The notes under the pieces were generated by a model that ran no database searches, had not been told where the DNA came from, and saw nothing but the letters and a program-made list of their open reading frames with translations. Position numbers and translations under genes: made by a program. This document shows, in pieces, positions 23,727 through 50,922 of a DNA stretch of 64,000 bases; the stretch's first letter is position 1, and every line of letters begins with the position of its first letter. Where the stretch lies: positions 96,001 to 160,000 of IMG/VR virus record IMGVR_UViG_3300014205_005221; one strand, 5' to 3'. The stretch comes from a virus. Lineage: Duplodnaviria > Caudoviricetes.

Positions 23727-24097
23727 TGCAACCTCGCACGGACTGTCGCACCCATAGCGTGCAAAAAATCATCGCGGAGCAGATCGAGGTTGCTCATCGC
23801 GTCGTGCTCCTCGCCGCGCCCGAACTCCTCTTTGGCGTACCTGACGATGGGGTGCGCGTAACCCGGGGCAGGCCCGCCATACGAGATCTCTCCCGACCAG
23901 CTGCTCTCATCTCGACGGTTCGAGACGCGACCTGAGCCCTTCAACGAGCCGGTGATGACGTGGACACGGGCCTGAGTCTCCTCAAAGCCCTTTGCCAGCA
24001 CCTGCGACAGCTCCGCCAGCGTCTCCACGCCGGGACCTTCGTGGGCGTCGAGAGCGTCGAGCCACTCCGACACATCGACATAGAGATAGACCGACAT
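23723..24097 (-). CDS. Tail completion/neck protein (HK97 gp10-like)
   Basis: VHVITGSLKGSG and YAKEEFG motifs. Confidence 0.7.
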   Translation of the reverse strand: MSVYLYVDVSEWLDALDAHEGPGVETLAELSQVLAKGFEETQARVHVITGSLKGSGRVSNRRDESSWSGEISYGGPAPGYAHPIVRYAKEEFGRGEEHDAMSNLDLLRDDFLHAMGATVRARLQ

Positions 24098-25031: not shown

Positions 25032-25040
25032 AACCTCCGA

Positions 25041-25799
25041 TTAGGTCAGCTTGGTCTTCAAGGTCGCCAGCTGCTGAATCGGACGTGCAACGCGGTTGCG
25101 ATTACGCTCGCGATCCGCTGCAGCGCCGTCCTTCCACGGCAAACCCGGCCATGGTCCATGTCCGAACTTGACCTGACCCCAACGGCGAAGCTGCTCACCA
25201 TCGGTCAGCAGCACCCACGACTTACCGGTGCGATCACAGGTGTCGCGCCACGCTGGAGTGCCCACCTCGAACTCGATCTCCTGGCCGACATACCAGACCT
25301 GACCGTTGGAAGTGAACCCGTCCTCGCGGACGTGAATGATCACCGTGTCGCCGGGAGCCGGGTCGATCGGAGGCGGGCCCACAGCCCACGACGCGACCTC
25401 CGCACCAGAGCCGGACAGAGCGGCCCGTGCTGCCGCCAGTTCGGCTTCCAGACGCAGCACCAGCTCGGTCTGGGCGGTGTTAGGGACCGGACCCGCCGGG
25501 AGGTTGTCCGAGCCAACGGTGTCGTTCGCCAAATTCTCCACATTGGTGTTGGAGATGACCACAGACTCCGACACATTCGAAGTAGTGACCGGCGGGACGT
25601 TGATGCCCGGGGTCGCATCGATCACCGGCTCGGGGTCCGGCGGAACGATGTAGGCGGACAGATCATCATCGGGCTCAGCCGACGCCACCTCATCGGGGGC
25701 ATCCGCAGGAGGGATCGCTCCCTTGGTCTTAGGAGTGCGCCCCGATGGGGGTGGCGGGCTGGACCGACGGATAGCAGGCTTCTCGTCTTCAGATGGCAT
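25041..25799 (-). CDS. Hypothetical protein (Pro/acidic N-terminus)
   Basis: 252 aa; AAGGAG RBS. Confidence 0.7.
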   Translation of the reverse strand: MPSEDEKPAIRRSSPPPPSGRTPKTKGAIPPADAPDEVASAEPDDDLSAYIVPPDPEPVIDATPGINVPPVTTSNVSESVVISNTNVENLANDTVGSDNLPAGPVPNTAQTELVLRLEAELAAARAALSGSGAEVASWAVGPPPIDPAPGDTVIIHVREDGFTSNGQVWYVGQEIEFEVGTPAWRDTCDRTGKSWVLLTDGEQLRRWGQVKFGHGPWPGLPWKDGAAADRERNRNRVARPIQQLATLKTKLT

Positions 25800-25819
25800 T
25801 GAATGCTCCTTGAGCTAAC

Positions 25820-26176
25820 TCAGACCTCAGCGATGTTGGTGTCGTCGTACGACACCGTCTGGCCACGGTTGGGGATGGCGTAGACGCCGACAGCACCGGC
25901 TGCAGCGATGAGCATCTGAATCAGCTCGACCGTCTGGATGCCGCCGACGATGGCCGACGCCAGCACGGTCAAAATCGCCGCGAGTGCCGACACGATGAAC
26001 TTGGTGTACTTCGCTCCCGGGATGTTCGGTGCGGTGAACACGGCAGCGGCACCGACGCCGATGATGGCGACGTTGACCCACTCCACAGAGTCCACAACGT
26101 TGTCACCCGCAAGCGCCGCCACCAGAGCAGCGGCGATCGTGACAACCACCTGCATGACGAGCTTTGCGTACTTCAT
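25820..26176 (-). CDS. Holin-like membrane protein
   Basis: 118 aa, four hydrophobic segments in two internal repeats; GVYAIPN motif. Confidence 0.65.
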   Translation of the reverse strand: MKYAKLVMQVVVTIAAALVAALAGDNVVDSVEWVNVAIIGVGAAAVFTAPNIPGAKYTKFIVSALAAILTVLASAIVGGIQTVELIQMLIAAAGAVGVYAIPNRGQTVSYDDTNIAEV

Positions 26177-26223
26177 GACAACCCTCCTCAGGAAGCGCAG
26201 CAGGAAAGCCGTGCTTCTCCGAG

Positions 26224-26230
26224 GTCTTCG
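26224..26230 (-). promoter_or_regulatory. Putative late promoter CGAAGAC
   Basis: Intergenic, upstream of the holin-like gene. Confidence 0.5.
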
Positions 26231-26242
26231 ACCTGGTGTCGG

Positions 26243-26425
26243 TTAAACTCCTCGACCCCGTACAAGTCCCAGGATCGCCAGAATGAACAGGACCACGGCG
26301 GCGATGTAGCCGATGATCATGACAATGGAGCCGCCCGGGGCAGGGATGTAGGGCGGAACGAAGATGGCGATGAGCAGGCAGATGACTGCGCCGATGAGGC
26401 AGCCGATCCAATTTGTACGCACCAT
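26243..26425 (-). CDS. Small two-TM membrane protein
   Basis: 60 aa hydrophobic; no SD, preceded by CGAAGAC-N6-ATG. Confidence 0.7.
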   Translation of the reverse strand: MVRTNWIGCLIGAVICLLIAIFVPPYIPAPGGSIVMIIGYIAAVVLFILAILGLVRGRGV

Positions 26426-26438
26426 GTAAGTGTCTTCG
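26423..26438 (-). promoter_or_regulatory. Putative leaderless late promoter CGAAGAC-N6-ATG
   Basis: GGTCGAAGACACTTACATG directly after a terminator. Confidence 0.55.
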
Positions 26439-26449
26439 ACCTAGAACGC

Positions 26450-26479
26450 AAAAAAGGGACCGGATTCGTCCGGTCCCTT
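26450..26479 (-). terminator. Intrinsic terminator ending the accessory island
   Basis: AAGGGACCGGA-4nt-TCCGGTCCCTT perfect stem followed by a U-tract on the minus strand. Confidence 0.85.
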
Positions 26480-26480
26480 C

Positions 26481-26717
26481 TCAGCTGGCCTCCGCATCCG
26501 GGACCAACCCCGTCGCCTGCCAGTGCGCCAACTGACCCTCGGTCCAGCCGAGCCACACGTGCAGCGGCTCACCGATGGTCTTCTTACAACGACGCCATTC
26601 TCGTTCTAGAAGTCTGACTTCCTCCGCGTTCAACTGACGAACCGGATAATTCTTCTCATGAACGGAATTGAGTCTACGTGCTACTTCCTGCGGAGTTTCC
26701 GGGGGAAGAAAACTCAT
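26481..26717 (-). CDS. Hypothetical protein
   Basis: ATG 26717 overlaps upstream TGA. Confidence 0.6.
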   Translation of the reverse strand: MSFLPPETPQEVARRLNSVHEKNYPVRQLNAEEVRLLEREWRRCKKTIGEPLHVWLGWTEGQLAHWQATGLVPDAEAS

Positions 26718-26797
26718 CCGCACTTACAAAAAAGGTAAGGACGTCCACACTTTGTGCAGTTACCGCGCTGAGGCGGACGGTAGAAATACCAGAACAT
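26714..26797 (-). CDS. 27-aa Cys-rich microprotein (MFWYFYRPPQRGNCTKCGRPYLFCKCG)
   Basis: Not in ORF track; AAAGGAG RBS; fills the gap; stop coupled (ATGA) to next gene. Confidence 0.6.
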   Translation of the reverse strand: MFWYFYRPPQRGNCTKCGRPYLFCKCG

Positions 26798-26806
26798 GAC
26801 TCTCCT

Positions 26807-27061
26807 TTAGTAGGGAGGATAGTAGCCACAATTCATACCAATGTTAAACATGCACTTACAGCAAAGATACCGCGTCAGTTCGTGAAAATGCCGAGGGCCT
26901 GATTGATCACCAATCTTGTGTGTAGCCGGGCCTCCGCACACGCAGATTTCTTCTACCGCCGAGATCGAGATGGAATGGGGAGCGTAGTCCACATTGACCC
27001 GATCCGGTTCCGCCCACGGCTGGCCCAACGAAGCCAACAAATCATCCATCTCACCCGGCAC
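26807..27061 (-). CDS. Hypothetical Cys-rich protein
   Basis: 84 aa; CVCG...CCKC; AAGGAG RBS. Confidence 0.6.
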   Translation of the reverse strand: MPGEMDDLLASLGQPWAEPDRVNVDYAPHSISISAVEEICVCGGPATHKIGDQSGPRHFHELTRYLCCKCMFNIGMNCGYYPPY

Positions 27062-27072
27062 GATGCGCTCCT

Positions 27073-27258
27073 TTAGTCTGTCCGACCATCAAGAGGCTGA
27101 TGCACTTCCTGCCACTCGATGGATCCGTCAGGACTGACTTCGCCTTCAGAAACCGGACCACACTGACAGTCATTCACAGGATCAACATCATGCTCTACAA
27201 GATCGTCCAACGGCACGATATGCACCCCGTGGATGGGATCATCTACTCGCGCCCACAT
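27073..27258 (-). CDS. Hypothetical protein (His/Cys motif)
   Basis: ATG 27258 coupled to upstream stop; HIVPLDD...H...CQCGP...H.PLDGR. Confidence 0.6.
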   Translation of the reverse strand: MWARVDDPIHGVHIVPLDDLVEHDVDPVNDCQCGPVSEGEVSPDGSIEWQEVHQPLDGRTD

Positions 27259-27635
27259 CAGGACGGTCCCAGCAGAAGCGAGATCGCATCTCGAAGCTCC
27301 GGGCACCCGGTCATCTCAGAAGACGCGCTCAACTTCTTGCCGTCCGTGACCTCGATACCCCGACCATACTTGCAGTCGCAGGTACGGTTCCCGAACGACC
27401 GGTACGCGCACACCTCCCGACGTACCGCCTCCAGCGACGCCGCCAGTTCCACGCGCCTATCGTATTCCGGCGCGAGCACATGCTGGGCCATCAACGGAGC
27501 CCATTCGGGATGTCCAGCACGCTGCATCTCGTAGAGAGCGACGTTCAGCGCCCGCTTCGCGTCATCGACCTCAACGTTGGTCTTCAGATAGACCCGCTGC
27601 AGGTTGGCCCGCGCTTCCTCAACCGACATCGACAT
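27258..27635 (-). CDS. Hypothetical protein
   Basis: 125 aa; CAY...CDCKY...GCPE; GGAGG RBS. Confidence 0.65.
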   Translation of the reverse strand: MSMSVEEARANLQRVYLKTNVEVDDAKRALNVALYEMQRAGHPEWAPLMAQHVLAPEYDRRVELAASLEAVRREVCAYRSFGNRTCDCKYGRGIEVTDGKKLSASSEMTGCPELRDAISLLLGPS

Positions 27636-35186: not shown

Positions 35187-35201
35187 GTCAGGGTCCTACC
35201 C
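35184..35201 (-). repeat. Start-associated 18-bp motif GGGTAGGACCCTGACATG
   Basis: TAG is the stop of the EndoVII-like gene. Confidence 0.85.
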
Positions 35202-36029
35202 GTCCAGCGAGGACCGCGCGTGGCGGAGGATGTACTCGTCGAACGCCGCTCCGGAAATGTTCATAGTCTCCAACCGACCTAATGTGGTGTTACAGCTGAA
35301 ACACAGCAGCTGACGAAGACACAAACCGCAGGACTGCCGACCCGGACAACACGCGTGGTCGTGATCCACAGCCAACCGACGATCACCCGGCGAAGCCCCA
35401 CAAATGGCACAAACCCACCCCTGAGCATCCGCCATACGTTCATAATCTTCAACAGTAAGTTTATACAAAAACCAAATTCTACTTACCCAAACCTGATCTA
35501 AATAAAGCTCACGCTGATCGTCAGTCATAGAGTCATAACGAACTTTACGTTCAATTTTACGACAAACTCGGCATACGACCTGATATCCAGATTCGACCGT
35601 CTGGTCTTCATAAAAACTAAGCACAGGCTTGCTCTCACCACAGGTAAGACACACCCGGACGCCATCGACAACCGGGTTTTCCTGATCCTTGATCGAAGGA
35701 AGTACATAGTCCGGACCACGCCACTTCTCCGCCTGCTTGGCGTTGGCCTTGCGCTGCAGCGCGCGGGCACACGGGAGACAGCGTCCGGTAAGACGCCTAC
35801 CCTCACCGCGATTCTTCTTCACCAGCTGCGCCAGCTCCATCGGAAGCTTCTCCCGGCACTGCGTGCAGGTGAACTCCGGATCCTCAGGCGTGAGGCCACG
35901 GTTGGGCTGACGCTCAGACGGCGTCTGCTTCATGCCAGGGCGGGGGATACCCGGGCGCCCGGACCCGGGACGAGGAACTCCCTTCCCACCCTTAGACGGC
36001 GGACTGCCAACAAAAACTGCGTCTTCCAC
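35196..36029 (-). CDS. Endonuclease VII-family nuclease (likely homing endonuclease)
   Basis: YKLTVEDYERM..AQGWVCAIC...LAVDHDH...LLCFSCNTTLG; extra N-terminal CxxC Zn fingers. Confidence 0.85.
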   Translation of the reverse strand: MEDAVFVGSPPSKGGKGVPRPGSGRPGIPRPGMKQTPSERQPNRGLTPEDPEFTCTQCREKLPMELAQLVKKNRGEGRRLTGRCLPCARALQRKANAKQAEKWRGPDYVLPSIKDQENPVVDGVRVCLTCGESKPVLSFYEDQTVESGYQVVCRVCRKIERKVRYDSMTDDQRELYLDQVWVSRIWFLYKLTVEDYERMADAQGWVCAICGASPGDRRLAVDHDHACCPGRQSCGLCLRQLLCFSCNTTLGRLETMNISGAAFDEYILRHARSSLDG

Positions 36030-37754: not shown

Positions 37755-38954
37755 TCAGGAAGTCAGGTACTGCGCGGCAGGACCGTCAGACGCGGTGAGA
37801 CGAGCAAGCTCGGCCTCGACGTCGATCTCCTGCTTCTGGTGAGCCTCAGCGTCAGGAGCGACACCCTTCTCGACCGACAGAGCCACGATCGGCTCCTCGG
37901 GGAGCAGGGCGTCGAAGGTCTCCCGGTTCGACAGGGCCAGGTTCAGGTACGTCTCACGCTTGGCCGGGACGATGAAGCCCCGGTCGATGAGACCGTCGAT
38001 CTCGGTCTCGACGTTGCGCTTCTCCAGAGCGAGAATCCGCTCACCGGCAGCGTCGAAGTTGCTCGACAACTTGACGTTCTGCTGAGCAAGCTCAGACACA
38101 GCGTCAACGAGCGTGTCGGTGTCGATTTCGCCATCCTTGTTCGAGAGAGCGACCTCGGCGTCGGTACCGGTCAGAGCAGCCTTGACCTTGGCGGCCAGCT
38201 CCTCGACGTCCGGCTTCGCGGCCAGCTCCTCCTGGGCGGCAGACAGCGCAGTCTCGGCAGTCTCCGTCTTGGTCTTGAAGGTCGCCAGCTGCTCCTGCAG
38301 CGCGGTGACATCCAGCTCGTGCTCGGCCTTCAACTCGGCCAGAATCTCATCCAGCGTGCGGGGCACCGCAGCCTCCCTCTGATCGCTTGTCGCACTCATC
38401 TCAAGGAGCGCGGGGCTGCCTTCGTATTCGGACGACGCCGCAACGATCTCCTCATAGGGATCCAGCTGGGTCACGTATGGACGGTTCGTGACAGCTACGT
38501 GTAAAAGCGTCGGACCAACCTTCTGGTTGGTAGTTGTGTCGGTGTAGTTCAAATGCATGAACGCCGACGCACCCAAAAGGGTCTTACCGAAATCATCGGC
38601 ACTCTTACGCGCATCTACGTGTGCGTAGATCTTGCCGTTCTTATCATCGACCTCGATGTCGAGAACTTCACCGAGATTTGCACCAGGATTCTCGACATGC
38701 TCATTCTGGTCATTGGCAAGAGGGACCTGAACAATGGGACAGACATTGGCGTCAAAGTTGCCCTTAAGAGCATCGCCAAATGCCTTGTCAATCTTAATCT
38801 TGGTCTTGGTGACCGGATGAATCAACTCTCCATAGGAGAGGATGTGCTTCCGGAACACCCGTCCCTGCTTCTGGCGGGACAGAGCGACAGAGTCGTTCAT
38901 CTCTGTCCAGTCCGCATCCGGTGACGGCGCAATTACCGTATACAGATCGCCCAT
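37755..38954 (-). CDS. Capsid maturation protease/scaffold (Mu gpI-like)
   Basis: GPTLLHVAVTNRPYV motif; coiled-coil scaffold C-terminus. Confidence 0.85.
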   Translation of the reverse strand: MGDLYTVIAPSPDADWTEMNDSVALSRQKQGRVFRKHILSYGELIHPVTKTKIKIDKAFGDALKGNFDANVCPIVQVPLANDQNEHVENPGANLGEVLDIEVDDKNGKIYAHVDARKSADDFGKTLLGASAFMHLNYTDTTTNQKVGPTLLHVAVTNRPYVTQLDPYEEIVAASSEYEGSPALLEMSATSDQREAAVPRTLDEILAELKAEHELDVTALQEQLATFKTKTETAETALSAAQEELAAKPDVEELAAKVKAALTGTDAEVALSNKDGEIDTDTLVDAVSELAQQNVKLSSNFDAAGERILALEKRNVETEIDGLIDRGFIVPAKRETYLNLALSNRETFDALLPEEPIVALSVEKGVAPDAEAHQKQEIDVEAELARLTASDGPAAQYLTS

Positions 38955-39040: not shown

Positions 39041-39349
39041 CTACTGAGGTGACCGCTTGCGGTTCTCCACCGCCTCCAGCGCTACCGCGCGGGCGAGAAC
39101 GTGCCGTGGCTCTTCACCTGTCTTACGTGGGATGGCTCGCCACAACGCCACCGTGGGAGTGCGCTGGGCAAGATGGCGCGCCCACTCGTCCCATGTCGGA
39201 GCTGAACCTCGGGACTCCATGATGGACGCCCCGAGTGTCCGAGCCTCGCCTCCGTCCTTGGTGCGAAGGTATGCCGACGATGTCGGGGACAGCCACACAC
39301 CGAGAACCTTGTTCGAATCTGGGTGCACATGCACCAGCGCTAGAGGCAT
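39041..39349 (-). CDS. Hypothetical protein, candidate immunity/accessory to MuF effector
   Basis: 102 aa; AAGGAG RBS; position. Confidence 0.6.
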   Translation of the reverse strand: MPLALVHVHPDSNKVLGVWLSPTSSAYLRTKDGGEARTLGASIMESRGSAPTWDEWARHLAQRTPTVALWRAIPRKTGEEPRHVLARAVALEAVENRKRSPQ

Positions 39350-39359: not shown

Positions 39360-39929
39360 TTACGAAGACCGGGTCAAGGATACAACCTCGGGCACCGTTC
39401 CCGACGGCGCACTCAAGGCCACACCGCCCACATGCGGATTAACGTATGCCAGCTCCATCGACTCGGTATCGATGTCCGAAGAACTCTGCACGACCAGCTC
39501 ACCAGCCGGGCCCGCAAACTGCGCCTGATCCATGAGAACCCGACGCAGCTTTTCCCTGTGCGGGGCCAGGAACTCCGCCAAACCCTCGGAGAACCACGAG
39601 TTCAGCTCCCACAACCCGGAGCGAGCACTGTCCAAGGGCAACAGCTGCGTGCGAACCACGTAGTGCCCGTCTCGGTCGATTTCCTCCCAGGAGTTGATGT
39701 ACATCAGCACATCCTGGTCGCCATCGAACGACATCAGCACCGGCCACTCGCCGCGCATCTGCATCACGACCAGCACCGGGAAGTTGAACCGGCCATCCGG
39801 GTCGAGACGGCCGTCCGCCATCACCTGCGAGAACGTGGCCCCCTGAGGGAAGCTCTCATCGAGAAACACCTGCCACGCTGCCGCCGCTTCGACAGCAGAA
39901 CTGAACTGCTGCTCCGTCGGGTTGTTCAC
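39360..39929 (-). CDS. Hypothetical protein, candidate immunity protein
   Basis: 189 aa starting 2 nt after the MuF stop. Confidence 0.6.
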   Translation of the reverse strand: MNNPTEQQFSSAVEAAAAWQVFLDESFPQGATFSQVMADGRLDPDGRFNFPVLVVMQMRGEWPVLMSFDGDQDVLMYINSWEEIDRDGHYVVRTQLLPLDSARSGLWELNSWFSEGLAEFLAPHREKLRRVLMDQAQFAGPAGELVVQSSSDIDTESMELAYVNPHVGGVALSAPSGTVPEVVSLTRSS

Positions 39930-39931
39930 GA

Positions 39932-42900
39932 TCAGTCATCCTCCTCATCAGGGTTCCACGCGAGCGCTGCCGCCTTGACCTTAGCCAAAGCTTCCGCCTT
40001 GCCCGCAGCTACCACGAACCTATCTTCAATCGTCAAACCACGGATGTTTGTTACACCCTTGCTCTTCAGGTAGTCGATGAACGCCTGACGTTCCGACTGA
40101 CTGTTAAACACAGCAAGTTCGATGTCATCCAACACCGAGATTCCATGCTTAATCATGGTCTCGTTATGGTCTTGAATGCTGGTAGCTTTCTCTAAGCTAA
40201 AATCAGACTTAATTTTACGATTGTCAATTTTACCCCAACCATCGCCCTTAAAGGAATAGTTGGTAGTTTTTGCCAACACACGCGGGTTTACATAAATTTG
40301 AGAGTAATCAAAGTTATTGCCGGTCTGATTAGTGCGAACAAAGTTAAAATGTCCAGCGCCGTTAGTAATGTCCGGCGGAGAAGACTGACCTTCAATAACC
40401 TTGCCCATCATACGAGGACGCGCTTCGTTCGACCACAGACCGCCCGTACGAAGAATCGTACGCATATCACCCATACCGATGGAGTGCGTAGCAAAAGGCT
40501 TGTTCTTGAGGTACTCCCAGTCCGCATCAAAACGATCCCAGTACGGGTTGCCGCCGACTACCTCAGGACGCGCCACGTTCGGATGCGAGAACTTCGGCAT
40601 GTACTTCTGCTTATCTACAAACTCTTTAACTTGCTCTTTGCTGGTCAATCGAGACCACGCCTCGCGCCAACGCTCCAGCTCTTCTTTAGCCTGAAGCGCA
40701 GGAGTGCCCTCCGTGCCGCCCGGCAAATTGTCCCGGACGTAATCCACCACGTCTTTGTGCTTACCCTGCCCCTGGTCCCTGCGATCCGTGAGCACGCCGT
40801 ACAGGTGGCGCCAGTAGAACAGCTCCATGTCGGTATCCTCCGCAGCAGACAGGTCCAATCCCATCTGCTGCAGCGCAGTCATAGCTGCCTCGGTTCCCGT
40901 ATGCGTGCCGTCGTAGTTGCGCACCTTGATCTTCAGACCGCCCTGCTGAGACCGCCGCACGCCATCTTCGTCGTGCCACGACCGGTACTCGATTTCTGTA
41001 CCGTCAGGGAGTTCCACAACATACGTTGTACCCGACTGAAGAATTTGGCTATTCCAGCCCGATGGCTTAGATCCATTCAGAACCATATTGCCGTCATCGT
41101 CGATCGAGCCCTGCTCGTAGTAGGACACAACCTTCTTGACCTTGAAACCGTCCGACGGAGCTGCAATCTCCGGCGTGATAGCTGGCCTCTTCGGAGGCTC
41201 GAACGGGAACGGGTCAAAATCACCGTGCTTAGACTGACCGCCAAAATCGATTAAACGCTGTACGTCTTTGATTTTGCCATCGTAGTACGACAGCAAATTC
41301 TTGTACGTTTCCTTGGCTTCTGTCCAGTCAGCAAACTGTGATGGATAAATACCCGATTCGACCTCAGCAAGCTTCTTCTCAACATCCGCTTTCATGGTAT
41401 TAAAATTAGCCATGTGCGACGAGTTGAAGTTTTGATCTCCTAACCCGTTGTGATGAGAAACAGTCTTAGCAGCAGCAAGCGAGAACTGCGAATAGCTAGT
41501 AGCTCCCGCGTTACTCAAAAACTCAGTCTTTTGATAACTGTCTGAAACATCTCCTACTGTAACCGTATTGCCAGCGCGAGCCACAAGCCACTTGCGCAAC
41601 TCCTTGTCCGCCTGCTTACGGACCAGCGCAGTCATATGCAGCTCGGTACCACCCTGCGACGTCTTCACCTCTTGCGCCAGAACGTAGTTCTCCTCCAGCG
41701 CATTGCCGCCAAAGAAAGTAGAAGCTCCCGCATGTCCGGCTTCCTTCACCCGGGTGAGATGGTCCTCCGAAAACCCGGAGAACACATGCTTGCCGAGGCT
41801 CTGGCTCTTGGCTGGCTTCTCGCGACCCAGCTGCGAGTAAATACCGTCCCAGAACTTCTCAAAATCCTCGGACAATGCGTTCTTACGCGCCAGCGCCTGC
41901 GACACCAGGTCAGGCAGATCCTTGGCAGACGTCCATCCAAAGTTGGTGCGGTTCTGTAATCCCTCAGTGATTGTCGAACCCCAGGACGCATCCGATACCG
42001 ACGACGTCTTCCGTGCCTGCGCCATAGATGCGAGGTACAACGAGTCCACATCCGCGTCGGAATACTTTCCTGACAACGCAGCCTTGTAGACCTTGTCGTA
42101 GTAAGGGGTGGTCCAGTCGGACAACTGCCCGACCTTCAGCTGCATAGAGCCCGGCTTGCCGAAACGCACGAAGGAACGGGCGATGTCGATCGGCATCACG
42201 CGCTTGCCATCGGGCATCAACAGGAAGTTGTTGCCGTGAGCGTCATCGTTTGCTGTGGCCCAGTCCTGCACGTGCGCGGCCATCAGATCCTTGAGTGCCG
42301 AGATGGGCAGGTCAACAGGATCAGTGTTCATCAAGGTTCCCTGGCTGGGGACCTTGGCCTGGAACTGGCCGAACTTGCCATTAAACGTTCCCAGCTCCGA
42401 CGCGGCAACCCGGAATCCCGCAAGCTCCGCCAACTTGTGGCTGGCGTGCTCGATCTCAGCGCGGAACTTCTCAGGAGCGACCTTGAACAGGAACGGGTTG
42501 CCCTGCTCATCGGTCAGCTGCCAGATCTCCGAAGACGAGCCACCACCGAGCGGAGGCTGCTCCGCATTCATGGTGTAAGTCTTCTTCTCAAGCTTCAACG
42601 CATCATGCACAAAGCCCAGCAGTGCAGGAACGTTGTAGTGTGAATCCTCGTAAATCTTGCCCAGCAAATCCTGCATCTGCTGCTTGGCAAAAGCCGGGCT
42701 CTTGAACGTGGCAGAACCTTCAGGGGCCGCAGCTACCGCGTGCAGCGCGACCAGCTGTGCCTTTACCTCGGGCGTCTGACTAGTCAAGAACTCAACAGAC
42801 TTGTCACTGACACCAACATGGTTCAAATAAGTATCAAGCTGACTGTTGTTCCATCCCTGCACCGCAACCTTGGAATAATCCATTTCAGGAAAACCTTCGG

Positions 42901-45900
42901 GCAACGGGACTGCATAGCCGGGAGCGTACTTCTCCACTGACGGAAGAATAGGCGAAGAATGAATGTCGCCCTCGTTGACATTTTTCTGTCCAAGATACGA
43001 GAGAGAATCAGTTCCCAGCTTGTTCCCTGAAGCGTGTGCGATTGCCCAAGAACGCTTTTGGCTACTGCTTAACCCTGTAGGATGCTGCATGTTTGCGGCA
43101 AGCAAATACGCATCTACAGTCTCACTCTGCCAAAGATGCCAAGAGTCAGTGTTGGGCCACGATCCGTCAACTTTGATTCCAGCAGGAATCTCGCCTGAGA
43201 CTAACGGCGGCATCTTCTTCTTGACGAAGCCGGACGCGTTCACCGGGTTTTCAGGAGAACCCGGGTGCACCTTGCGCTTACCGTGCTGCTGAACCTTCTT
43301 GGACTCGATCTCGTAAGCCTTGTCCCACTCACCGTTGGCCCACGCGTACATCCACGCGACCAAGTCTTCCTTCTTGGTCGAGCTGTTCAGATGCTTGGCT
43401 GCAATGTTCTCGAACCCGGAATCCTTGGCCCACTTCTTCGCAGACGCCAACAGCACCGGCTTCTCGACCCAGTCCGGCCTGATGTGCCCCGCCACCATGA
43501 ACGGCTGCAACACCGGGGCGTCCGCATCGAACATGTGCGACGGCGTAGACGCGACCGGAGAGTTCTGCGGTGGCACCCAGAACATGTCACCGGACTCCAC
43601 GGCGTTCATGAACTCATCGATGTCCATGTTTGGGCCACTGGCGTCCAGCGTGACGTGCATTCCCTCGCCGTCGGTCCAGGTGCCCAGCTGCACCCCATTC
43701 CAATAACCGTCCGGCGAGACCTCATCGGGCGCGTCCGGGGTGTTGGGGACCGGGTCGACCGCAGGAGCCACCGATGGGCCGTCGTAGACGCTGTCGAGCT
43801 TGGAGACCAGCTCTTCCGGGCTGTAGACCTTCAGCACCGAGCCATCGGCATCGATCTTCTGGACGAGACCGTCAGGATCGAACTTGTAGTGCGCCACCTG
43901 CGGGGCAGCACCCGTAGACAGCAGGTTCCCCTGGCCCAGGCCAGTCAGATACACAAATTGGTTATTCTTCGCAGCAGTCTGGAAAGCCTGCGAGAACGGC
44001 GTGGTAGTCGGCGCCCACGCGTCCTGCATAGAAGCGTTGCCTGCTTTGGCTACCAGGTCGCCCAGGTACGGAGACTGCAACGCAGCGCCCGCCTGATCCT
44101 CCAAAGACGGGGGCCCGGAATCCTCCAGATCTCCCTGGAACACCGCCGTATGCGTCTGGAATGACAGAGTGTCATCCATCAGGTTCATGGCAAAAAACGA
44201 TGGTGAAATGCCCTCAGGCCCGTTCTCGCCTACCTTGAAAACGTTTCCGTTGTACTGATGCTTGTAATCGCCGATCAGGAACCCGTTAGGGTCCTTGAGC
44301 GCCTCGGTCATCCAAGAGTCCGGACTCACCTGCAACGCCGTGGGAGCAATACCCTCGCTGGTGAGATAGGGCTTCACCACATCAATATGCGCCATTGACT
44401 CACCGGATGGCGTCGCAATGAGCACCGAGCCGTCCGGGTACACGCTGTAAGTAGAAGTCCCTGAAGCGTAGTGACCGACCTGCACTCGATTCACGTAGAC
44501 AGCATTAGGATCCGTCGGAAGATCCGACAGCTTATCCCAAGTACCTAACTCAAGCATACTCTTGACAAGATCAGAATCTGTCATATGAACAGTCTGACCA
44601 GAAGACGTGTTAATGCTGTGCGCTGTTCCGTCCGGGTAGACCTTGAGCGCCATACCACCCGGAGAGGTGTAGAACCCGACCTCAGGCAACTCCGAACCCG
44701 CAAGATCCGTGCCTAATCCGGAGGTCTGGAACTTGTCACCAATCTTGTCGGCGATCTGTGCAGAACTCAAATTCTTGAAATCTCCATCGTTGATTTCAAC
44801 AACAGAGTTCTCTTCAGGATTGATCTCGAAGTAAGTTCCGCCCTCGAAATAACCATCATCGGTGTCGATGTACCCGGAAGAACTCCAGAAATGGGTTTCA
44901 CCAGTCTTGTGCGCCTGCTGGAACGCGTCCGCAAAAGAATTGTCAAAAATGCCATCCGTGTCCTTGGCATTTTTGACCAATTCCTGCAGCGAAAGAGAAC
45001 CGCCCGACACGTTGGTGGTCGGCGGACCACTGAAGAAATCTTCCACCGGGTCCGGCGCGCCCACATCTACAGGAGTGACATCCGGATCCGAATCAGGTCC
45101 AGTCACAGGCGTCGGGTTGGACGCCATGTTGTCGGCCTTGCCCTGCAGGACAGCGATAACCGCTTCCTTGAGCTTGCCGTAGTGAACCTTGCCGTTACCG
45201 CCCTTAAACGGAGCAGACAGCGGGTCCGCCTCGATGAAGGTCTTGAGATCCGCCTTGGCGAGCGGAGAGTCAATCGCCTTGAGCGGCGCCTTCACGCTAG
45301 TAGAGCTGGAATTCTTCACCGCATCGATAGCGTCGAGAATTTCCTGCTTGGTAACGCTCTTCCCTGCAACGGACACCGTAGACGGAGCAGTCGGCGCTTC
45401 CGGCGGATTGTTGAGCTGCAGAACAGCATCGTCCATGTGCTTCTGCAGCGCATCCGACACGGCCTGCTTCCACGGCGCCGAGTCCAAATGCGAATCGACA
45501 CCGAGGCTTGCTCCGAACCCGTTCTGGCCCATTCCCTTGAACGGATGTCCCGCAGGGAGATGGCCCATCAACGTGTAGAACTGACCATCCGGGTCCAATC
45601 CCAGCGGCGGGCCATCCCACAAGCTCTTGAGCAACTGCAGCTCGTTGACGCTGGCCTCGACAGTACCCAGCTGCACCTTGGGAGAATCATCCGGACCGGG
45701 CGTCTCGACAGGACCATTCTGACCTGGACGTGTCTTCACATTCAGATAGTCATTCAACCCATCGAACAGCACCTTGTTCATCTCATGAGCCGGAGTACGG
45801 CCCACGAACTCGCTCCAGTCCACGCCATACGCGAGCGGGTTATGCCCTACTTGCGCCAGCTTGCCGGACATCGTTTCACCCTGATCAAAATCGATGTCGG

Positions 45901-48900
45901 CAAAAAAGTCCTGCATCTCCTTGATCTGCGCCTGCGACGCCAGCACACCCTGGATACCCGGGCTGGCGTGCGGAACCTCGGGCAGATCCGCAGCCGGGTT
46001 CGGAACAGGAGGGTGATCTGTCTGGTGCTTATCCAGAGCATCCTGCAGCAGCGCGATCACAGCAGGCTTGAGCTTGCCGTAATGAACCTTGCCGTTGCCT
46101 CCCTTGAAAGAATCAGTCAACGGAGACGTGTTGGCGTGTCCCTGCAGGTCGACACCCGACAGCGGGGAACCAATAGCCTTGAGCGGCTTCTTCACACCGG
46201 TCTCAGACTTAGGCGACTTCTGCAGCGCGTCAAGCGCTTCCGCCACCGCCTGCGGGGTGACCGGAACACCGCCGAACGAAATGAAACCCGGAGACGCAGG
46301 CGCGTGCGTGTGTCCAGAGCCCTGCGGATCCACCGCGTGCAGCGCAGCGTGGATCGCTTCATGATCAGAAAGCCCGAGCGAGGACTGATGCTCTTCGAGA
46401 CCGTGCGACTCCTGCAGGTGCGCCACGGCGGGAGCGGCATCCAACGGCGTAGCACCGGTCTGCTGATGCGCCTTCTGCAACGCGGCAATCAGAGCAGGCT
46501 TGGTCTTGTTGTTGTAGTACGCCTTGTACGGCGCGGCTACCTCGTGGAACTTGCCTGCCGCCAGCGGGGATCCCACGCGCTTGAGGTCCGCCGCGACGTT
46601 GCCCGACGGGTTCGCAGACAGAGCGTTGATCGCCTGCTCCAGCTGCGTCGACGTCATCTCGAACCCACCGACCAACGCCTTCCCCGAACCCGGGAGAGGC
46701 TGGGTGTTCTGGATCGACACGCCCTCGTCAGTGACGTTGTTGAGGCCCGAAAGCAGCTGCGCGCGAGCAGCCGGATTGTCCGCGCCGCCGACCTTCTTCG
46801 CCTGCACACCCGCGCCCTGCGGGTTGTACTTGATCAGATCACCATCGGGCTGCAGGACGTAGAGCGTGTCCTTGGACTTGCCCGACTTGTAGACCTGCGA
46901 GCCCTCCTCCATCTGCACGGAGTGCGCGCCGACCGAAAACAACGACGGACCGTTCTTGACCACACCGCCAGGACCGCCCTCGGGCGCTTCAGGCTGGCTG
47001 AACTTCGGACGCACCGGAGCGGACATATCCTCGACGACATCACCGGTCTCAGGGTCCGTCACCGGCTCGGCATCCGCCGGGACAGCAGGCGCGCGACCGT
47101 CGAGACCGAACTCCTTGATGTCTTTTAGAATTCGCTTGTCACGGTTGACATTCAGGAGACTCTCGGCTTCCTCCACAGAGACCTTCTTGACCGAAGCAGT
47201 CTCCGAGCCTCCCGGCTCGTACGGAGAAGCGTCATCGGGCAGCGGCTGACCGCCGGTCCGCTTTCCGACGTACATGCGGACCTTGCCGCCGCCGGAGCGC
47301 TTGAAGTCGCCAAGATATCCGGTGATGTCTCCTTCGAGACCGGTCTCTTCCCACAGCTCCTTATGTGCGTTCTGCTGCGGAGAAAGATTGGCTTCGATAC
47401 CGCCCTTGGGAAACGTGTGCTCGTAACCTGCGTAGTGATCCTTGGGCTCGTAAATCCAGATGTAACCGTCAGGCTCGATCAGCGCGATGCCCGTAGCCAT
47501 CCGGCCCTCGGTGTCCGGCAACGCAGGCTCACCCGGGATCGCGACATCCGGCTTGGCCGTGAAGTCCGGCATCTTCTGACCGTTGGCGTTCTTCTTGGAC
47601 TGCGGACGATCGCCAGGCTCGGAAGTGTTCTGCGATCCCGAGGATCCCGAAGCGTTCTGCTGTCCAAGGACATTCTGCTGCTCTGGGGCCGGGATTCCCT
47701 TGGGGACAGCCTTGCCACGATCGCCGGGCTCGGCCTGATTTGGAATCGACGGAGCTTCAGGAGCAGAGCCCCCGCCCGCCTTAGACGCGTTGAACTTGCG
47801 CTGCCAATCCTCATTGAAATCGTCGTCTTCAACTTCGTCGACATCACCGAGGCTGCCGTTTGCAATCTGCTTTACCGCCACCTGTTGCAGCGGAAAACTC
47901 TTCTTAAAGTCAGACTTGTAAATTTCACCAGTTCCGTCTGGATTAACCTTTACTCCACCCCAGTTGGAATTATCAGTGAAAACGTAAGAACCCTCTGGGA
48001 GCGTTCCATTCTTCTTCAGATCCTCATTCATTTCCATGAGCGGACCCGGACCATCGGGATCCGGAACATCAGGATCGTCAGAAATTTTTGTTACTGTTCC
48101 GTACTGCTTGTGCAGAGAAAGGAACTGAGCTGTCTTAGCTTTATCGCTATCGACAGTCTCACCCTTGTGAATAGAAGTAGAAGAACCATCCTGGTGAACA
48201 ATAACCTGAGTATCTTCATCACCAGGCATGTCAACTTTATAAGTGCCTGGCTTCCAGTTCAGGTCGATAGAACCGCCCTTGGGCGTGGCCTTATCCGCCG
48301 CCTTCTGAGCCTTGTTGATGGCCTTAGCCTGCTTAGCAGAAACCTGCTTCACATTTGGCGAAGGCAGTGCTCCACCAACATCCGGAATCTTCATTCCAGT
48401 CTTAGTGTCGTAGTAATAGCCCGACACGTGCTGAAGATGACCGTTGACCATTCGCGTGTACGCCTTCACGTGCACGATCGTGGCCGCAATATAGTCGTCT
48501 CGATCTTCAGGAGACACAGTCATCGCCCACTTGGCGTACGCCTGCATTCCCTGCGCGGTCAGTCCGACCGTCGGCGCGCTAGCCGGGAAGTAGATCACCA
48601 GCGAGCAGCGACAGTTTGGGTGACGCGGAGGCGTACTCAACACCTTGGTGTAGGGAACCGGCTCAGAATCAGGAACCTCGAACGGCTCTCCGAGCGGCAC
48701 GTGCTGACCGTGCAAACGAGTACACATGGGGCACGGAGGGTTCACCAAATCGAAGCGAGCCACCCACAGCTTGTGTGCTGTCTCAGAAAGCAGCTCCGCC
48801 AACGCTTGCAGGAACTGCTCGGTAGCCGCACCACGACCCGCCTGCACCGCCGAGACAACCGCCAGCTCCGCGCGGCGCAGCATCTCCGCGAGCGCCTTAG

Positions 48901-49297
48901 CCTTGTCCTTGGCACCCTTGGCTACCGCAACCTGGCCAGCCAGGAAATCCGTGACCAGCTGCGTGCCCAGCTCCTCGCTGGAGAACACCACCGTGTCCAT
49001 GAGCGCGGTCGGCAGATCCAACGCCTCCGCCTGCGCCCGGCCGAACCGAGCACCCTCATCGACACCCGCCGACAGCGCACGACGGATGAGCGCCACCGAA
49101 CCCGCGAGCAACGCAGTGGTGACCAGCGGAGAGCCATCTTCCTCTGACTGCGCGTCGGTCAACCGCTGGCCGTAGAGCACCCGCATGTCCGCCACAAACT
49201 GCTGCTCCGCCGCAGCCGCGAACGTGCGCGAGGTATCCACCAGACCCAGCAGCTCTACGAGATCCTGCTCGATCGGCGTCAAAGCCGGGGTGGTCAC
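39932..49297 (-). CDS. Giant MuF (minor head) fusion: MuF + Nudix + internal repeats + HipA/PI3K-like kinase + probable ADP-ribosyltransferase-like domain
   Basis: 3121 aa right after portal; CPMCTRLHG...PPRHPNCRC (MuF); GGIEANLSPQQNAHKELWEETGL (Nudix box); FLFK...E...DWATANDDAHGNNFLL...IDIARSF (atypical kinase); ATHS...ILRTGGLWS...NETMIK (ART-like, weaker). Confidence 0.85.
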   Translation of the reverse strand: MTTPALTPIEQDLVELLGLVDTSRTFAAAAEQQFVADMRVLYGQRLTDAQSEEDGSPLVTTALLAGSVALIRRALSAGVDEGARFGRAQAEALDLPTALMDTVVFSSEELGTQLVTDFLAGQVAVAKGAKDKAKALAEMLRRAELAVVSAVQAGRGAATEQFLQALAELLSETAHKLWVARFDLVNPPCPMCTRLHGQHVPLGEPFEVPDSEPVPYTKVLSTPPRHPNCRCSLVIYFPASAPTVGLTAQGMQAYAKWAMTVSPEDRDDYIAATIVHVKAYTRMVNGHLQHVSGYYYDTKTGMKIPDVGGALPSPNVKQVSAKQAKAINKAQKAADKATPKGGSIDLNWKPGTYKVDMPGDEDTQVIVHQDGSSTSIHKGETVDSDKAKTAQFLSLHKQYGTVTKISDDPDVPDPDGPGPLMEMNEDLKKNGTLPEGSYVFTDNSNWGGVKVNPDGTGEIYKSDFKKSFPLQQVAVKQIANGSLGDVDEVEDDDFNEDWQRKFNASKAGGGSAPEAPSIPNQAEPGDRGKAVPKGIPAPEQQNVLGQQNASGSSGSQNTSEPGDRPQSKKNANGQKMPDFTAKPDVAIPGEPALPDTEGRMATGIALIEPDGYIWIYEPKDHYAGYEHTFPKGGIEANLSPQQNAHKELWEETGLEGDITGYLGDFKRSGGGKVRMYVGKRTGGQPLPDDASPYEPGGSETASVKKVSVEEAESLLNVNRDKRILKDIKEFGLDGRAPAVPADAEPVTDPETGDVVEDMSAPVRPKFSQPEAPEGGPGGVVKNGPSLFSVGAHSVQMEEGSQVYKSGKSKDTLYVLQPDGDLIKYNPQGAGVQAKKVGGADNPAARAQLLSGLNNVTDEGVSIQNTQPLPGSGKALVGGFEMTSTQLEQAINALSANPSGNVAADLKRVGSPLAAGKFHEVAAPYKAYYNNKTKPALIAALQKAHQQTGATPLDAAPAVAHLQESHGLEEHQSSLGLSDHEAIHAALHAVDPQGSGHTHAPASPGFISFGGVPVTPQAVAEALDALQKSPKSETGVKKPLKAIGSPLSGVDLQGHANTSPLTDSFKGGNGKVHYGKLKPAVIALLQDALDKHQTDHPPVPNPAADLPEVPHASPGIQGVLASQAQIKEMQDFFADIDFDQGETMSGKLAQVGHNPLAYGVDWSEFVGRTPAHEMNKVLFDGLNDYLNVKTRPGQNGPVETPGPDDSPKVQLGTVEASVNELQLLKSLWDGPPLGLDPDGQFYTLMGHLPAGHPFKGMGQNGFGASLGVDSHLDSAPWKQAVSDALQKHMDDAVLQLNNPPEAPTAPSTVSVAGKSVTKQEILDAIDAVKNSSSTSVKAPLKAIDSPLAKADLKTFIEADPLSAPFKGGNGKVHYGKLKEAVIAVLQGKADNMASNPTPVTGPDSDPDVTPVDVGAPDPVEDFFSGPPTTNVSGGSLSLQELVKNAKDTDGIFDNSFADAFQQAHKTGETHFWSSSGYIDTDDGYFEGGTYFEINPEENSVVEINDGDFKNLSSAQIADKIGDKFQTSGLGTDLAGSELPEVGFYTSPGGMALKVYPDGTAHSINTSSGQTVHMTDSDLVKSMLELGTWDKLSDLPTDPNAVYVNRVQVGHYASGTSTYSVYPDGSVLIATPSGESMAHIDVVKPYLTSEGIAPTALQVSPDSWMTEALKDPNGFLIGDYKHQYNGNVFKVGENGPEGISPSFFAMNLMDDTLSFQTHTAVFQGDLEDSGPPSLEDQAGAALQSPYLGDLVAKAGNASMQDAWAPTTTPFSQAFQTAAKNNQFVYLTGLGQGNLLSTGAAPQVAHYKFDPDGLVQKIDADGSVLKVYSPEELVSKLDSVYDGPSVAPAVDPVPNTPDAPDEVSPDGYWNGVQLGTWTDGEGMHVTLDASGPNMDIDEFMNAVESGDMFWVPPQNSPVASTPSHMFDADAPVLQPFMVAGHIRPDWVEKPVLLASAKKWAKDSGFENIAAKHLNSSTKKEDLVAWMYAWANGEWDKAYEIESKKVQQHGKRKVHPGSPENPVNASGFVKKKMPPLVSGEIPAGIKVDGSWPNTDSWHLWQSETVDAYLLAANMQHPTGLSSSQKRSWAIAHASGNKLGTDSLSYLGQKNVNEGDIHSSPILPSVEKYAPGYAVPLPEGFPEMDYSKVAVQGWNNSQLDTYLNHVGVSDKSVEFLTSQTPEVKAQLVALHAVAAAPEGSATFKSPAFAKQQMQDLLGKIYEDSHYNVPALLGFVHDALKLEKKTYTMNAEQPPLGGGSSSEIWQLTDEQGNPFLFKVAPEKFRAEIEHASHKLAELAGFRVAASELGTFNGKFGQFQAKVPSQGTLMNTDPVDLPISALKDLMAAHVQDWATANDDAHGNNFLLMPDGKRVMPIDIARSFVRFGKPGSMQLKVGQLSDWTTPYYDKVYKAALSGKYSDADVDSLYLASMAQARKTSSVSDASWGSTITEGLQNRTNFGWTSAKDLPDLVSQALARKNALSEDFEKFWDGIYSQLGREKPAKSQSLGKHVFSGFSEDHLTRVKEAGHAGASTFFGGNALEENYVLAQEVKTSQGGTELHMTALVRKQADKELRKWLVARAGNTVTVGDVSDSYQKTEFLSNAGATSYSQFSLAAAKTVSHHNGLGDQNFNSSHMANFNTMKADVEKKLAEVESGIYPSQFADWTEAKETYKNLLSYYDGKIKDVQRLIDFGGQSKHGDFDPFPFEPPKRPAITPEIAAPSDGFKVKKVVSYYEQGSIDDDGNMVLNGSKPSGWNSQILQSGTTYVVELPDGTEIEYRSWHDEDGVRRSQQGGLKIKVRNYDGTHTGTEAAMTALQQMGLDLSAAEDTDMELFYWRHLYGVLTDRRDQGQGKHKDVVDYVRDNLPGGTEGTPALQAKEELERWREAWSRLTSKEQVKEFVDKQKYMPKFSHPNVARPEVVGGNPYWDRFDADWEYLKNKPFATHSIGMGDMRTILRTGGLWSNEARPRMMGKVIEGQSSPPDITNGAGHFNFVRTNQTGNNFDYSQIYVNPRVLAKTTNYSFKGDGWGKIDNRKIKSDFSLEKATSIQDHNETMIKHGISVLDDIELAVFNSQSERQAFIDYLKSKGVTNIRGLTIEDRFVVAAGKAEALAKVKAAALAWNPDEEDD

Positions 49298-50922
49298 TAC
49301 GCACCTGCCATCGCGCTCAAGGCGCTGTCGATCGCGTCACGGTCAGTGTTGTCGAGAGCGACGAACTCGGGAGCGAGATACGTCGAAGCCGACGGAAGGC
49401 CCTCAGAAGACAGCTGAGAGGGCAATGCGGGCAGCTGAGGCGTAGGCGCGGGAGCACCCCCCGGAAGCGCAGCCTGACCCGGCATTCCCATGGGCTGGTT
49501 ACCCGGGATGAACTGCTGCTGCGGGGCCACACCCGGCTGCTGATCTGCAGGCACCGTAGGGATGGGCTGGAACGGCGGCTCCATCGGAGGGGCTCCGACA
49601 CCGGCCATGAAGTGCTTCACGGTCTCATCGGTCTGCTTCTTCAGCAGCTCATCGAGCTTCTCGTACTCGATGTCAAGGCCCATCTCACCCGCCATGTACT
49701 TCTCCAGCTCCAGCATGAACCGGCGAGTCACGTTGGCGCCCTGGCCAGCAGAAGAAAGCTTGTCAAACGTGTTCTTGATGGCCTCTTTTTGCTCTTCAGA
49801 AAACGGGCCAAACTTCAGCTTTGGATACTTGTCGTTCTTAAAGTTCCAGTCAATGAATCGCGGAGTGAGCCAATCGTTAAAAATAGTTTCTAACTCGTTA
49901 ATAATGACATTGACCAGCACCAAATACATCGAGTCGTTAGGGCCGCCGAACGACACCAACGGAGAACCGCCACCCTGCTGATCGTCCAGGAACGGCGCCA
50001 ACACCGACTTACTCATCTGGCTGTTGTGGTGATTGATGAAATCCATGAACGGGAACTCACCCGGGGAACGGCCGAGATCCTCCACCGACCAGCCAATATC
50101 CGGAACCGTCACCGACTGCGCAAGGCCGAAGTCCTGCAACGCCATGCGGAACTGGCTGATCTCCTTGGGAGAGGCCGACGTCGGGTACTTGCCCAGACGC
50201 GACCCCACCGCACGGTGCTGCGCCGCGAGGTGCGCCAAGTAGTACAGCTTGATCTTCTTATCGTAGTGATAAAAAGCAGCGTTAAAGTAAGAAACTCCGT
50301 AGAACGGATTCTCTTCCTCGGAGCACGCGTAATAGATCGAGTTCTTGGCTTCGATCTTCTCGTCGATGACTCGGCCATTCGGAGTCACGGTGCGCTGACG
50401 GAACCCGTCGTACTCACCCTGCTCATCGACCGCGAACGACACAGTATCCGAAGGACGATACGCGATCTTGTCGAGCGTGTACTTACCCTCCAGCGGACCC
50501 TTGCGCGGGCGCGTGTAGACCAGCTCGAAAGGCGCAAACCCGTCCACCGTCGCCAGCAGCATCTGCGAGACAACTCGATTGAACGGCGTACGCATACCGC
50601 CATTCACCGCAGGCAAGGTGTAGAGATTCGTGATGAACTCCGCCTCCTTGTCCCCGCCATCCGCCGGAACCCAGGACGCACGCTTCGCCGCCGCGCGGGC
50701 GGGCATGGTGAGCAGCCGGTACAGCGCACGCGCCTGGCCATCTTGGCGACGCATCTCTGTCAGCTGCTTCACCGTGGGAACGTCGTTGCGCCCCAGCAGG
50801 TACGAACCCTTGGAGTCGAAGCCCTCGGCGAACGGCATACCCGCCAGCCGAATACCCATCTCCTCATTAAGCTCAGAGTTTTTGGGCTTGACCATTTCGG
50901 TGACATTGTCGGGCTTTGCCAC
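49297..50922 (-). CDS. Portal protein (Mu gp29/DUF935-like)
   Basis: 541 aa after terminase; GFAPFELVY, ENPFYGVS, INHHNSQMSKSVLA. Confidence 0.9.
   Translation of the reverse strand: MAKPDNVTEMVKPKNSELNEEMGIRLAGMPFAEGFDSKGSYLLGRNDVPTVKQLTEMRRQDGQARALYRLLTMPARAAAKRASWVPADGGDKEAEFITNLYTLPAVNGGMRTPFNRVVSQMLLATVDGFAPFELVYTRPRKGPLEGKYTLDKIAYRPSDTVSFAVDEQGEYDGFRQRTVTPNGRVIDEKIEAKNSIYYACSEEENPFYGVSYFNAAFYHYDKKIKLYYLAHLAAQHRAVGSRLGKYPTSASPKEISQFRMALQDFGLAQSVTVPDIGWSVEDLGRSPGEFPFMDFINHHNSQMSKSVLAPFLDDQQGGGSPLVSFGGPNDSMYLVLVNVIINELETIFNDWLTPRFIDWNFKNDKYPKLKFGPFSEEQKEAIKNTFDKLSSAGQGANVTRRFMLELEKYMAGEMGLDIEYEKLDELLKKQTDETVKHFMAGVGAPPMEPPFQPIPTVPADQQPGVAPQQQFIPGNQPMGMPGQAALPGGAPAPTPQLPALPSQLSSEGLPSASTYLAPEFVALDNTDRDAIDSALSAMAGA

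Follow-up and report, generated by a model that had tools for sequence, protein, structure and literature searches.

What would a tailed phage use a 3121-residue protein for, when that protein is encoded between the portal and prohead protease genes and carries several enzyme folds? The question is raised by a 64,000-nucleotide stretch of DNA (hereafter the window), corresponding to bases 96001-160000 of the 186,050-bp contig recorded as IMGVR_UViG_3300014205_005221, and in particular by its gene P0001. A preliminary description, drawn from the DNA letters alone, had interpreted the product as a MuF head protein joined to a Nudix hydrolase, a HipA/PI3K-like kinase and, least certainly, an ADP-ribosyltransferase (ART) related to DarT. 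In this study we assign MuF, Nudix, kinase and ART-fold domains to the giant protein, and these four assignments, taken alone, are held with high confidence. Less firmly, we lean towards the full mechanistic reading, namely that of a MuF-anchored polyvalent head protein that would be packaged and delivered into the new host. Within this single head-module gene the order is MuF, Nudix, spacer, a region here called preK, kinase and ART-fold domain. The genes and domains that carry the argument are as follows.

39932..49297, minus strand: giant gene P0001, GTG start, 3121 amino acids (aa), no internal stops
49297..50922, minus strand: Mu-type portal gene (PF06074), directly upstream, overlapping the start of the giant gene
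37755..38954, minus strand: prohead protease/scaffold gene, whose homologues in relatives carry PF10123 (Mu-like prohead protease)
48578..48958, minus strand: MuF (head morphogenesis) domain, residues ~114-240, with a Cys/His motif at 48605-48733
47123..47500, minus strand: Nudix hydrolase domain, residues 600-725, an optional cassette with low-complexity linkers on both sides
42608..43510, minus strand: preK region, residues 1930-2230, which accompanies the kinase in 99 of 152 homologues
41828..42592, minus strand: predicted atypical protein-kinase domain, residues ~2236-2490, of the CtkA/PI4K-II/PI3K/HipA clade
39995..40549, minus strand: DarT-like ART-fold domain, residues ~2917-3101

The giant gene and its recognisable domains

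The giant gene is real. Its open reading frame (ORF) is uninterrupted, and a collinear 3121-aa homologue with 50% identity (P0004) comes from an independent NCBI assembly, so that a frameshift or misassembly is excluded and the intact 3121-aa ORF of the preliminary description stands. Further relatives of 2005-3568 aa have long blocks in common with the giant protein. The possibility that the MuF fusion is an assembly artefact was rejected, since the same fusion is present on other contigs in P0003-P0006, P0008, P0011 and P0013; the gene context of these MuF-fused relatives was inspected for P0004 and P0008. The placement in the head module was likewise borne out. The start of the giant gene overlaps the stop of the portal gene by one base (TAGTG), the two genes being coupled in translation, and the gene order runs from a probable 631-aa terminase through the Mu-type portal, the giant ORF and two small ORFs to the protease/scaffold, decoration and capsid genes, the decoration protein being of the lambda D type (HDPD) and the major capsid protein of the E type.

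Residues ~114-240 match several PHROG head-morphogenesis/MuF families, with E values from 3e-9 to 5.7e-5. This region is homologous to the stand-alone 265-aa gp15 of Microbacterium phage Magritte (E 1e-13) and to small post-portal genes of syntenic uncultured phages, one of which scores 27.9 bits against the Pfam MuF family (Phage_Mu_F, PF04233). Homologous N-termini lie above the cutoff of this family in a more distant fused relative, P0013 (31.9 bits), and in gp15 of Pan1, a cultured cyanophage of Pseudanabaena (36.7 bits). A C-terminal CxxC ... HPxCxC motif is characteristic of MuF. In the giant protein it takes the form PCxxC...LHG...PPxHPxCxC, in which C189, C192, H196, H226, C229 and C231 are invariant in 13 of 13 fused and stand-alone homologues; this is the Cys/His motif that had been noticed at ~48.6-48.75 kb. 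Moreover, MuF is encoded right after the portal gene both here and in the relatives. From these sequence comparisons, the assignment of residues ~114-240 to MuF is accepted.

The kinase domain was modelled over residues 2225-2565 from an alignment of 37 sequences, with a predicted local distance difference test score (pLDDT) of 92.3 and a predicted TM-score (pTM) of 0.81. Foldseek returned at least 500 kinase matches for this model, which cover model residues 1-267 only and leave out the beta-rich domain that follows the kinase, and the modelled fold is nearest to the PI3K/PI4K/HipA/CtkA kinase clade. The Lys, Glu, DxHxxN and ID motifs claimed earlier are all present, as K2272, E2283, D2352-x-H-x-x-N2357 and D2371 (window ~42185-42484), each of them kept in 136-149 of 153 homologues. 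Sub-threshold matches to the Pfam family HipA_C (PF07804) occur in 22 of 32 homologues, the best with an E value of 3.5e-7. The domain is predicted to be an active atypical kinase. When PDB sequences were searched with single sequences and with profiles, neither the kinase nor the C-terminal domain nor the complete core gave anything above noise.

The C-terminal region (residues 2700-3121) was modelled from 36 sequences, with a pLDDT of 89.1 and a pTM of 0.87. Foldseek returned nothing at E <= 1e-3 for this model; its weak matches repeatedly include DarT1, three other DarTs, SopF, PARP-1 and OspC3. In the ESM Atlas, the model matched a DarT cluster at a TM-score of 0.65 (by the DarT model) over 174 residues, with a root-mean-square deviation of 3.6; further clusters returned by this search were one of PARP and one of a 947-aa 'phage head morphogenesis protein'. 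Nothing in BFVD matched the model at E <= 1e-3. The model thus lends good support to an ART fold for residues ~2917-3101, nearest to that of DarT, the single-stranded DNA ADP-ribosyltransferase toxin of DarTG systems (PF14487; E. coli C7 DarT1, 8baq; Thermus DarT, 7omv).

At the sequence level, the domain falls outside DarT. PF14487 matches neither the giant protein nor any of 31 homologues, and an hhalign comparison of the family with 13 DarTs was not significant (probability 1.5%, P 0.034), the sole paired stretch being that of the family N-E-x-M-V-K with the catalytic A-E-F-L strand of DarT. This stretch contains E3046, which is kept in 148 of 151 homologues. The DarT-like ART proposed from an H...ILRTGGL...E pattern (window ~40160-40486) can therefore be retained for the fold and the glutamate but not for sequence membership; the pattern is present, whereas its histidine, H2938 at the beta-1 position, is not conserved (47 of the 151 homologues have H there, 34 have S and 15 have R). 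The conserved positions are instead R2960, R2962, S2972, D2976, R2988, Y3014, D3019, G3022 and N3045-E3046, among which Y3014 and S2972 are candidates for the middle residue of an ART triad (H-Y-E or R-S-E). In kind, this R/D/S/E set resembles R35, R52, D54, S63 and E152 of DarT1 (PMC11543638), among which R35, R52 and D54 hold NAD+ and E152 is catalytic.

Two relatives strengthen the ART reading of the C-terminal domain. In P0010, a Nudix and a kinase N-lobe, both homologous, are followed by a classical R-S-E ART (PF03496/PF01129) in the same C-terminal slot. In Pan1 gp15, a bona fide MuF is fused directly to a homologue of the ART-like domain.

The Nudix domain is recognised by Pfam above its cutoff (PF00293, residues 600-725; E 1.5e-10, 41.6 bits vs 21.1). 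The Nudix box announced at ~47.3-47.4 kb lies at residues 632-654 (window 47336-47404) and reads G-x5-L-x7-K-E-L-W-E-E-T-G-L, to be compared with the consensus G-x5-E-x7-R-E-U-x-E-E-x-G-U; it keeps the metal-binding E-x2-E-E ligands. Its Lys variant is found in the boxes of P0003, P0004 and P0010 as well, where the first-Glu position is occupied by L, Y and M. The nearest solved relative is the Aquifex Ap4A hydrolase (3i7u, E 3.8e-8), followed by DDP1, and the NCBIfam matches are weak and lean to RppH-type RNA pyrophosphohydrolases. By sequence, the domain resembles the Ap4A hydrolase and RppH types more than ADP-ribose pyrophosphatases, a point on which the earlier suggestion of ADP-ribose hydrolysis needs correcting. 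P0005, P0006 and P0008 lack the segment that contains it (~514-768), and five other family members have their Nudix domain inserted after the kinase and ahead of the C-terminal domain; it is thus a recurrent and movable cassette. The big head proteins of the IMG/VR phage loci L011:4706-15199 and L019:5018-13465 have Nudix between the kinase and the ART-like domain, an insertion point unlike that of the window.

Distribution of the family and relation to known systems

An exhaustive HMMER search with residues 1930-3121 found 650 representative clusters, defined at 50% identity, 228 of them at E < 1e-30. Nearly all members are 1,050-4,200 aa long and have the core match at their C-terminus, and the kinase and ART-like parts occur together in 150-152 of 152 matches. 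Judged by these searches, the kinase and ART-like core forms a large family that is nearly absent from cultured phages. A megablast of the giant gene against 50,697 phage genomes gave no match, and a scan of 185,579 representative prokaryote genomes with a few peptide patterns gave 2 core matches, both on contigs of metagenome-assembled genomes (MAGs). No stand-alone ART-like proteins of 122-389 aa were found in a word-seeded search of limited sensitivity.

The head slot itself is conserved. In 33 IMG/VR contigs (up to 143 kb) and 3 further assemblies, the shared order is terminase, Portal_Mu, MuF, big protein, protease/scaffold, decoration and capsid E. Wherever MuF is visible in one of these IMG/VR loci, it has an ORF of its own, placed upstream of that for the big protein, and the fusion is restricted to the subclade of the window, that is, to the MuF-fused relatives named above. 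The fusion hard-wires an association that is implied elsewhere by gene order, the cargo gene standing right after MuF.

The giant protein belongs to a kind that is already known, the polyvalent, MuF-anchored head effector. Polyvalent proteins are known from conjugative elements as well as from phages (Iyer, Burroughs, Anand, de Souza, Aravind 2017, PMC5512222), and there is a survey of ART, Nudix and Macro proteins that are packaged in virions (PMC9503650). The giant protein shares with polyvalent proteins the joining of several effector-type enzymes in a single very long chain whose gene has portal, MuF and capsid genes as neighbours, a MuF domain as anchor to the head, the recurrence of ART and Nudix, and the prediction of packaging and injection; here, Nudix, kinase and ART fold follow MuF in a gene that comes after that of the portal and before that of the prohead protease. 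There are differences as well. The kinase clade of PMC5512222 is a Ser/Thr/Tyr kinase without C-lobe from phages of Verrucomicrobia and Bacteroidetes, whereas the kinase of the giant protein groups with the CtkA/PI4K-II/HipA clade, and the ART-like domain matches no Pfam ART family, ART-PolyVal included. The preliminary description had called a tandem of three nucleotide-using enzymes exceptional. This view has to be given up, as the core occurs in 650 clusters, Nudix recurs, and multi-enzyme MuF or polyvalent proteins have been published (PMC5512222, PMC9503650).

Comparison with other known enzymes gives a similar picture of likeness and difference. DarT is a toxin of ~200 aa, whereas the ART-like domain forms the C-terminal end of a giant head protein; its family does not conserve the beta-1 His, and no Macro-type partner was found in the assembly. 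Macro (PF01661) has no match anywhere in the 80%-complete assembly, in which NADAR was not searched, and a six-frame genome search with PF14487 was negative. Unlike HipA, the kinase has neither a HipA N-terminal domain nor a HipB/HipS partner, and it is one domain among several of a phage head protein. MuF-fused ARTs, T4 Alt and Pan1 gp15 also have an ART-type domain attached to or packaged with head proteins, but these have one enzyme in 300-930 residues, to which the giant protein adds Nudix, kinase and ~1,500 unassigned residues. HopAG1, a type III effector of Pseudomonas syringae, likewise combines ART and Nudix in one delivered effector (PMC9963460); it targets eukaryotes through a type III secretion system and has another domain order, and the likeness noted here is one of domain content; the paper gives no confirmation of a kinase in HopAG1. 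What we did not find in the literature searched is a fixed unit of preK, CtkA/HipA-clade kinase and DarT-like ART, its spread through a lineage of uncultured phages, and the alternation of separate and fused MuF.

The source is a large tailed phage, probably with an actinobacterial host. The nearest deposited phage is Magritte (133 kb), with a capsid protein 58% identical. The 186-kb contig is by far the largest of a fragmented 2.9-Mb MAG, whose second largest contig measures 49 kb, and it has 60% GC and carries 40 clustered transfer RNA (tRNA) genes, with clusters at 8988-27310 and 170051-175117, outside the window. No terminal overlap of the contig was seen in the assembly. A prophage was considered as its origin and rejected, given its 186 kb, its 40 tRNAs and its rank as the largest contig of a fragmented MAG.

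Proposed function and rival explanations

In the reading we prefer, the giant protein would be made together with the portal, protease and capsid proteins, and its MuF domain would recruit it into the procapsid, by analogy with the MuF protein gp7 of SPP1. SPP1 gp7 binds its portal. The Mu-like prohead protease may trim the giant protein, which would then be ejected with the DNA at infection, as suggested by T4 Alt and by the concept of polyvalent proteins. In the new host, the kinase would phosphorylate host proteins, the ART domain would use NAD+ to ADP-ribosylate a host macromolecule, and Nudix could cleave a dinucleotide-type molecule, for example ApnA or an NAD/NDP-capped RNA or signal. 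A fold like that of DarT and Tpt1, together with several conserved arginines, favours an ART target that is a nucleic acid or carries phosphate, and a nucleic acid proper is a tentative choice to which we give a low probability. An extended proposal is just as doubtful: that preK, kinase and ART form a coupled, injected machine of uncultured 60-190-kb phages, which would ADP-ribosylate host DNA or RNA, with the kinase regulating or complementing this activity and Nudix clearing NAD-derived by-products or alarm nucleotides. A DarT/Tpt1-type chemistry that is otherwise known from anti-phage toxins of bacteria would then be turned to attack by the phage.

Several points weigh against this mechanism, or against parts of it. 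Packaging, injection, polyprotein processing and a role in anti-defence are inferred from genomic context and from analogy. A protein of 335 kDa would need unfolding to traverse the tail; P1 DarB and N4 vRNAP are precedents for large proteins passing through a tail. The giant protein itself stays below the Pfam cutoffs of Phage_Mu_F (20.8 bits vs 29.6) and of HipA_C (best 24.2 bits vs 30.5), the Nudix box departs from the consensus at two positions (the first E to L, and R to K), and the NAD-binding His/Arg position of the ART-like domain could not be mapped. Furthermore, there is one weak match to the core in the 50,697 deposited phage genomes, and the full core is found in no cultured phage.

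The explanation that survives best beside the injected polyvalent protein is one in which the enzymes act late, in the producing cell or the assembling capsid, where MuF would localise them to the packaging vertex and they could modify phage DNA, capsid or portal, or host factors. Such a timing would suit a gene of the late head module that is coupled to the portal gene, and DarT-type enzymes do modify DNA (PMC11543638); the genome yielded neither Macro nor Pfam DarT, so that nothing obvious would prevent self-modification. However, the known head-module MuF fusions and T4 Alt are read as packaged and injected (PMC5512222, PMC9503650), little or no NAD+ or ATP is expected inside a capsid, and the variable cassettes (Nudix, RNA ligase, Zeta-type kinase, classical ART) resemble conflict effectors and not assembly factors. 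We consider this explanation unlikely.

A shade less probable again is a chiefly structural role, in which the giant protein would be an internal-head or ejection protein (a spacer, an inner body or a conduit) and the enzyme folds would be vestigial or would serve as binding modules. More than half of the protein (~250-590 and 760-2230) is without enzyme signature, these regions being repeat-rich and high in Pro, Gly, Ser, Asp and Glu, the size of relatives ranges from 1,050 to 4,200 aa, and a fold alone does not reveal ART activity. Against this, relatives that are 27-50% identical keep the catalytic residues of the kinase, all five of them, as well as the Glu of the ART and the metal-binding Glu residues of Nudix, which argues for selection on catalysis.

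MuF polymorphic toxins of prophage type were reportedly described by Jamet et al. in 2017. That the giant protein is such a toxin, used in competition between bacteria, with the two small downstream ORFs as immunity proteins, would agree with its N-terminal MuF and toxin-type C-terminal domains, the tight coupling of these ORFs and the swapped C-terminal ART type of P0010, but is very improbable given the size of the contig (186 kb), its 40 tRNAs and its lack of bacterial flanks, only 2 core matches (in MAGs) when the 185,579 representative bacterial genomes were scanned with a few peptide patterns, a C-terminus that is the conserved and not the variable part of the protein, a 102-aa ORF better conserved than the giant protein, and a 189-aa ORF homologous to the N-terminus of another enzyme fusion.

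The locus is of wider interest. Head-packaged effectors decide the first minutes of infection, and very few have been studied (T4 Alt, P1 Dar, N4 vRNAP); the giant gene offers a well-defined entry into a large unnamed family of ~650 clusters. If the ART modifies nucleic acids, phages would wield the chemistry that bacteria use against them in DarTG, and a kinase that acted in the manner of HipA would make an injected switch of translation or growth. Moreover, one head slot exchanges cargo cassettes, namely Nudix, classical ART, RNA ligase, Zeta-type kinase and GNAT, and this exchange helps to annotate the giant 'hypothetical' head genes of metagenomic phages.

Other regions of the protein and neighbouring genes

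The remaining features of the giant gene, and the two small ORFs that follow it, are listed below.

47759..48550, minus strand: post-MuF region, residues ~250-513, conserved in MuF-fused relatives only, no known family
45956..46426, minus strand: internal duplication, copy 1 (~150 aa), residues 958-1114
45059..45568, minus strand: internal duplication, copy 2, residues 1244-1413
41603..41800, minus strand: small beta-rich domain that follows the kinase and is modelled with confidence, residues ~2500-2565
40598..41143, minus strand: beta plus helical accessory subdomain ahead of the ART fold, residues ~2719-2900
39360..39929, minus strand: 189-aa ORF, starting 2 nt past the stop of the giant gene
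39041..39349, minus strand: 102-aa ORF, 73% and 56% identical in two relatives, above the conservation of the giant protein

Between Nudix and the C-terminal enzyme core lie ~1,200 residues of repeat-containing spacer. The two copies of the internal duplication are 45-50% identical (E down to 8e-28), and the giant protein contains seven short 'PDG' hairpin-like motifs. Pfam searches on seven segments found nothing for residues 240-600, 760-1930, 1930-2230, 2500-2720 and 2700-3121, NCBIfam gave nothing on the giant protein but the weak Nudix matches, and preK had no usable match in a protein atlas of language-model features. Along the gene, GC and the GC content at third codon positions (GC3) vary strongly; GC3 reaches 0.77 in MuF and 0.75 in the kinase and falls to 0.53-0.57 in the segments after MuF, in the linker and in the ART-like part. 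Similar GC and GC3 dips are seen at the linker and C-terminal segments of the 50%-identical relative. This mosaic is consistent with a modular assembly of the giant gene and proves nothing.

In one relative, the same slot encodes a 490-aa Zeta_toxin/AAA_33 protein (L064:15147-16619), whose N-terminal ~200 aa match the 189-aa ORF with 31% identity (E 1.6e-15); the product of this ORF is also homologous to a 152-aa protein of one relative. These homologies and the conservation of the 102-aa ORF fit conserved head-slot or adaptor roles better than fast-evolving immunity, and the 189-aa ORF may encode an adaptor or targeting domain shared by head cargo. Between the giant gene and the protease gene, relatives carry an RNA ligase (PF09414; L063:14823-15452) or the Zeta-toxin-type kinase just mentioned. 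In Magritte, the slot is occupied by an unrelated protein of 1991 aa, for which a weak GNAT match was seen (L001:11926-17901), and the giant gp17 of that slot has no significant similarity to the giant protein of the window.

Two further genes of the window deserve mention. An endonuclease VII/HNH-type gene (PF02945, E 1e-16; 35196-36029, minus strand) directly follows the major capsid gene, and a gene of this type has the same place in relative L063. At 9293-19171, on the minus strand, a second giant ORF of 3292 aa contains two LysM domains (E 6e-24) and, near its C-terminus, weak SLT and NlpC/P60 matches; its probable role is that of a tape-measure or ejection protein that carries cell-wall hydrolase modules.

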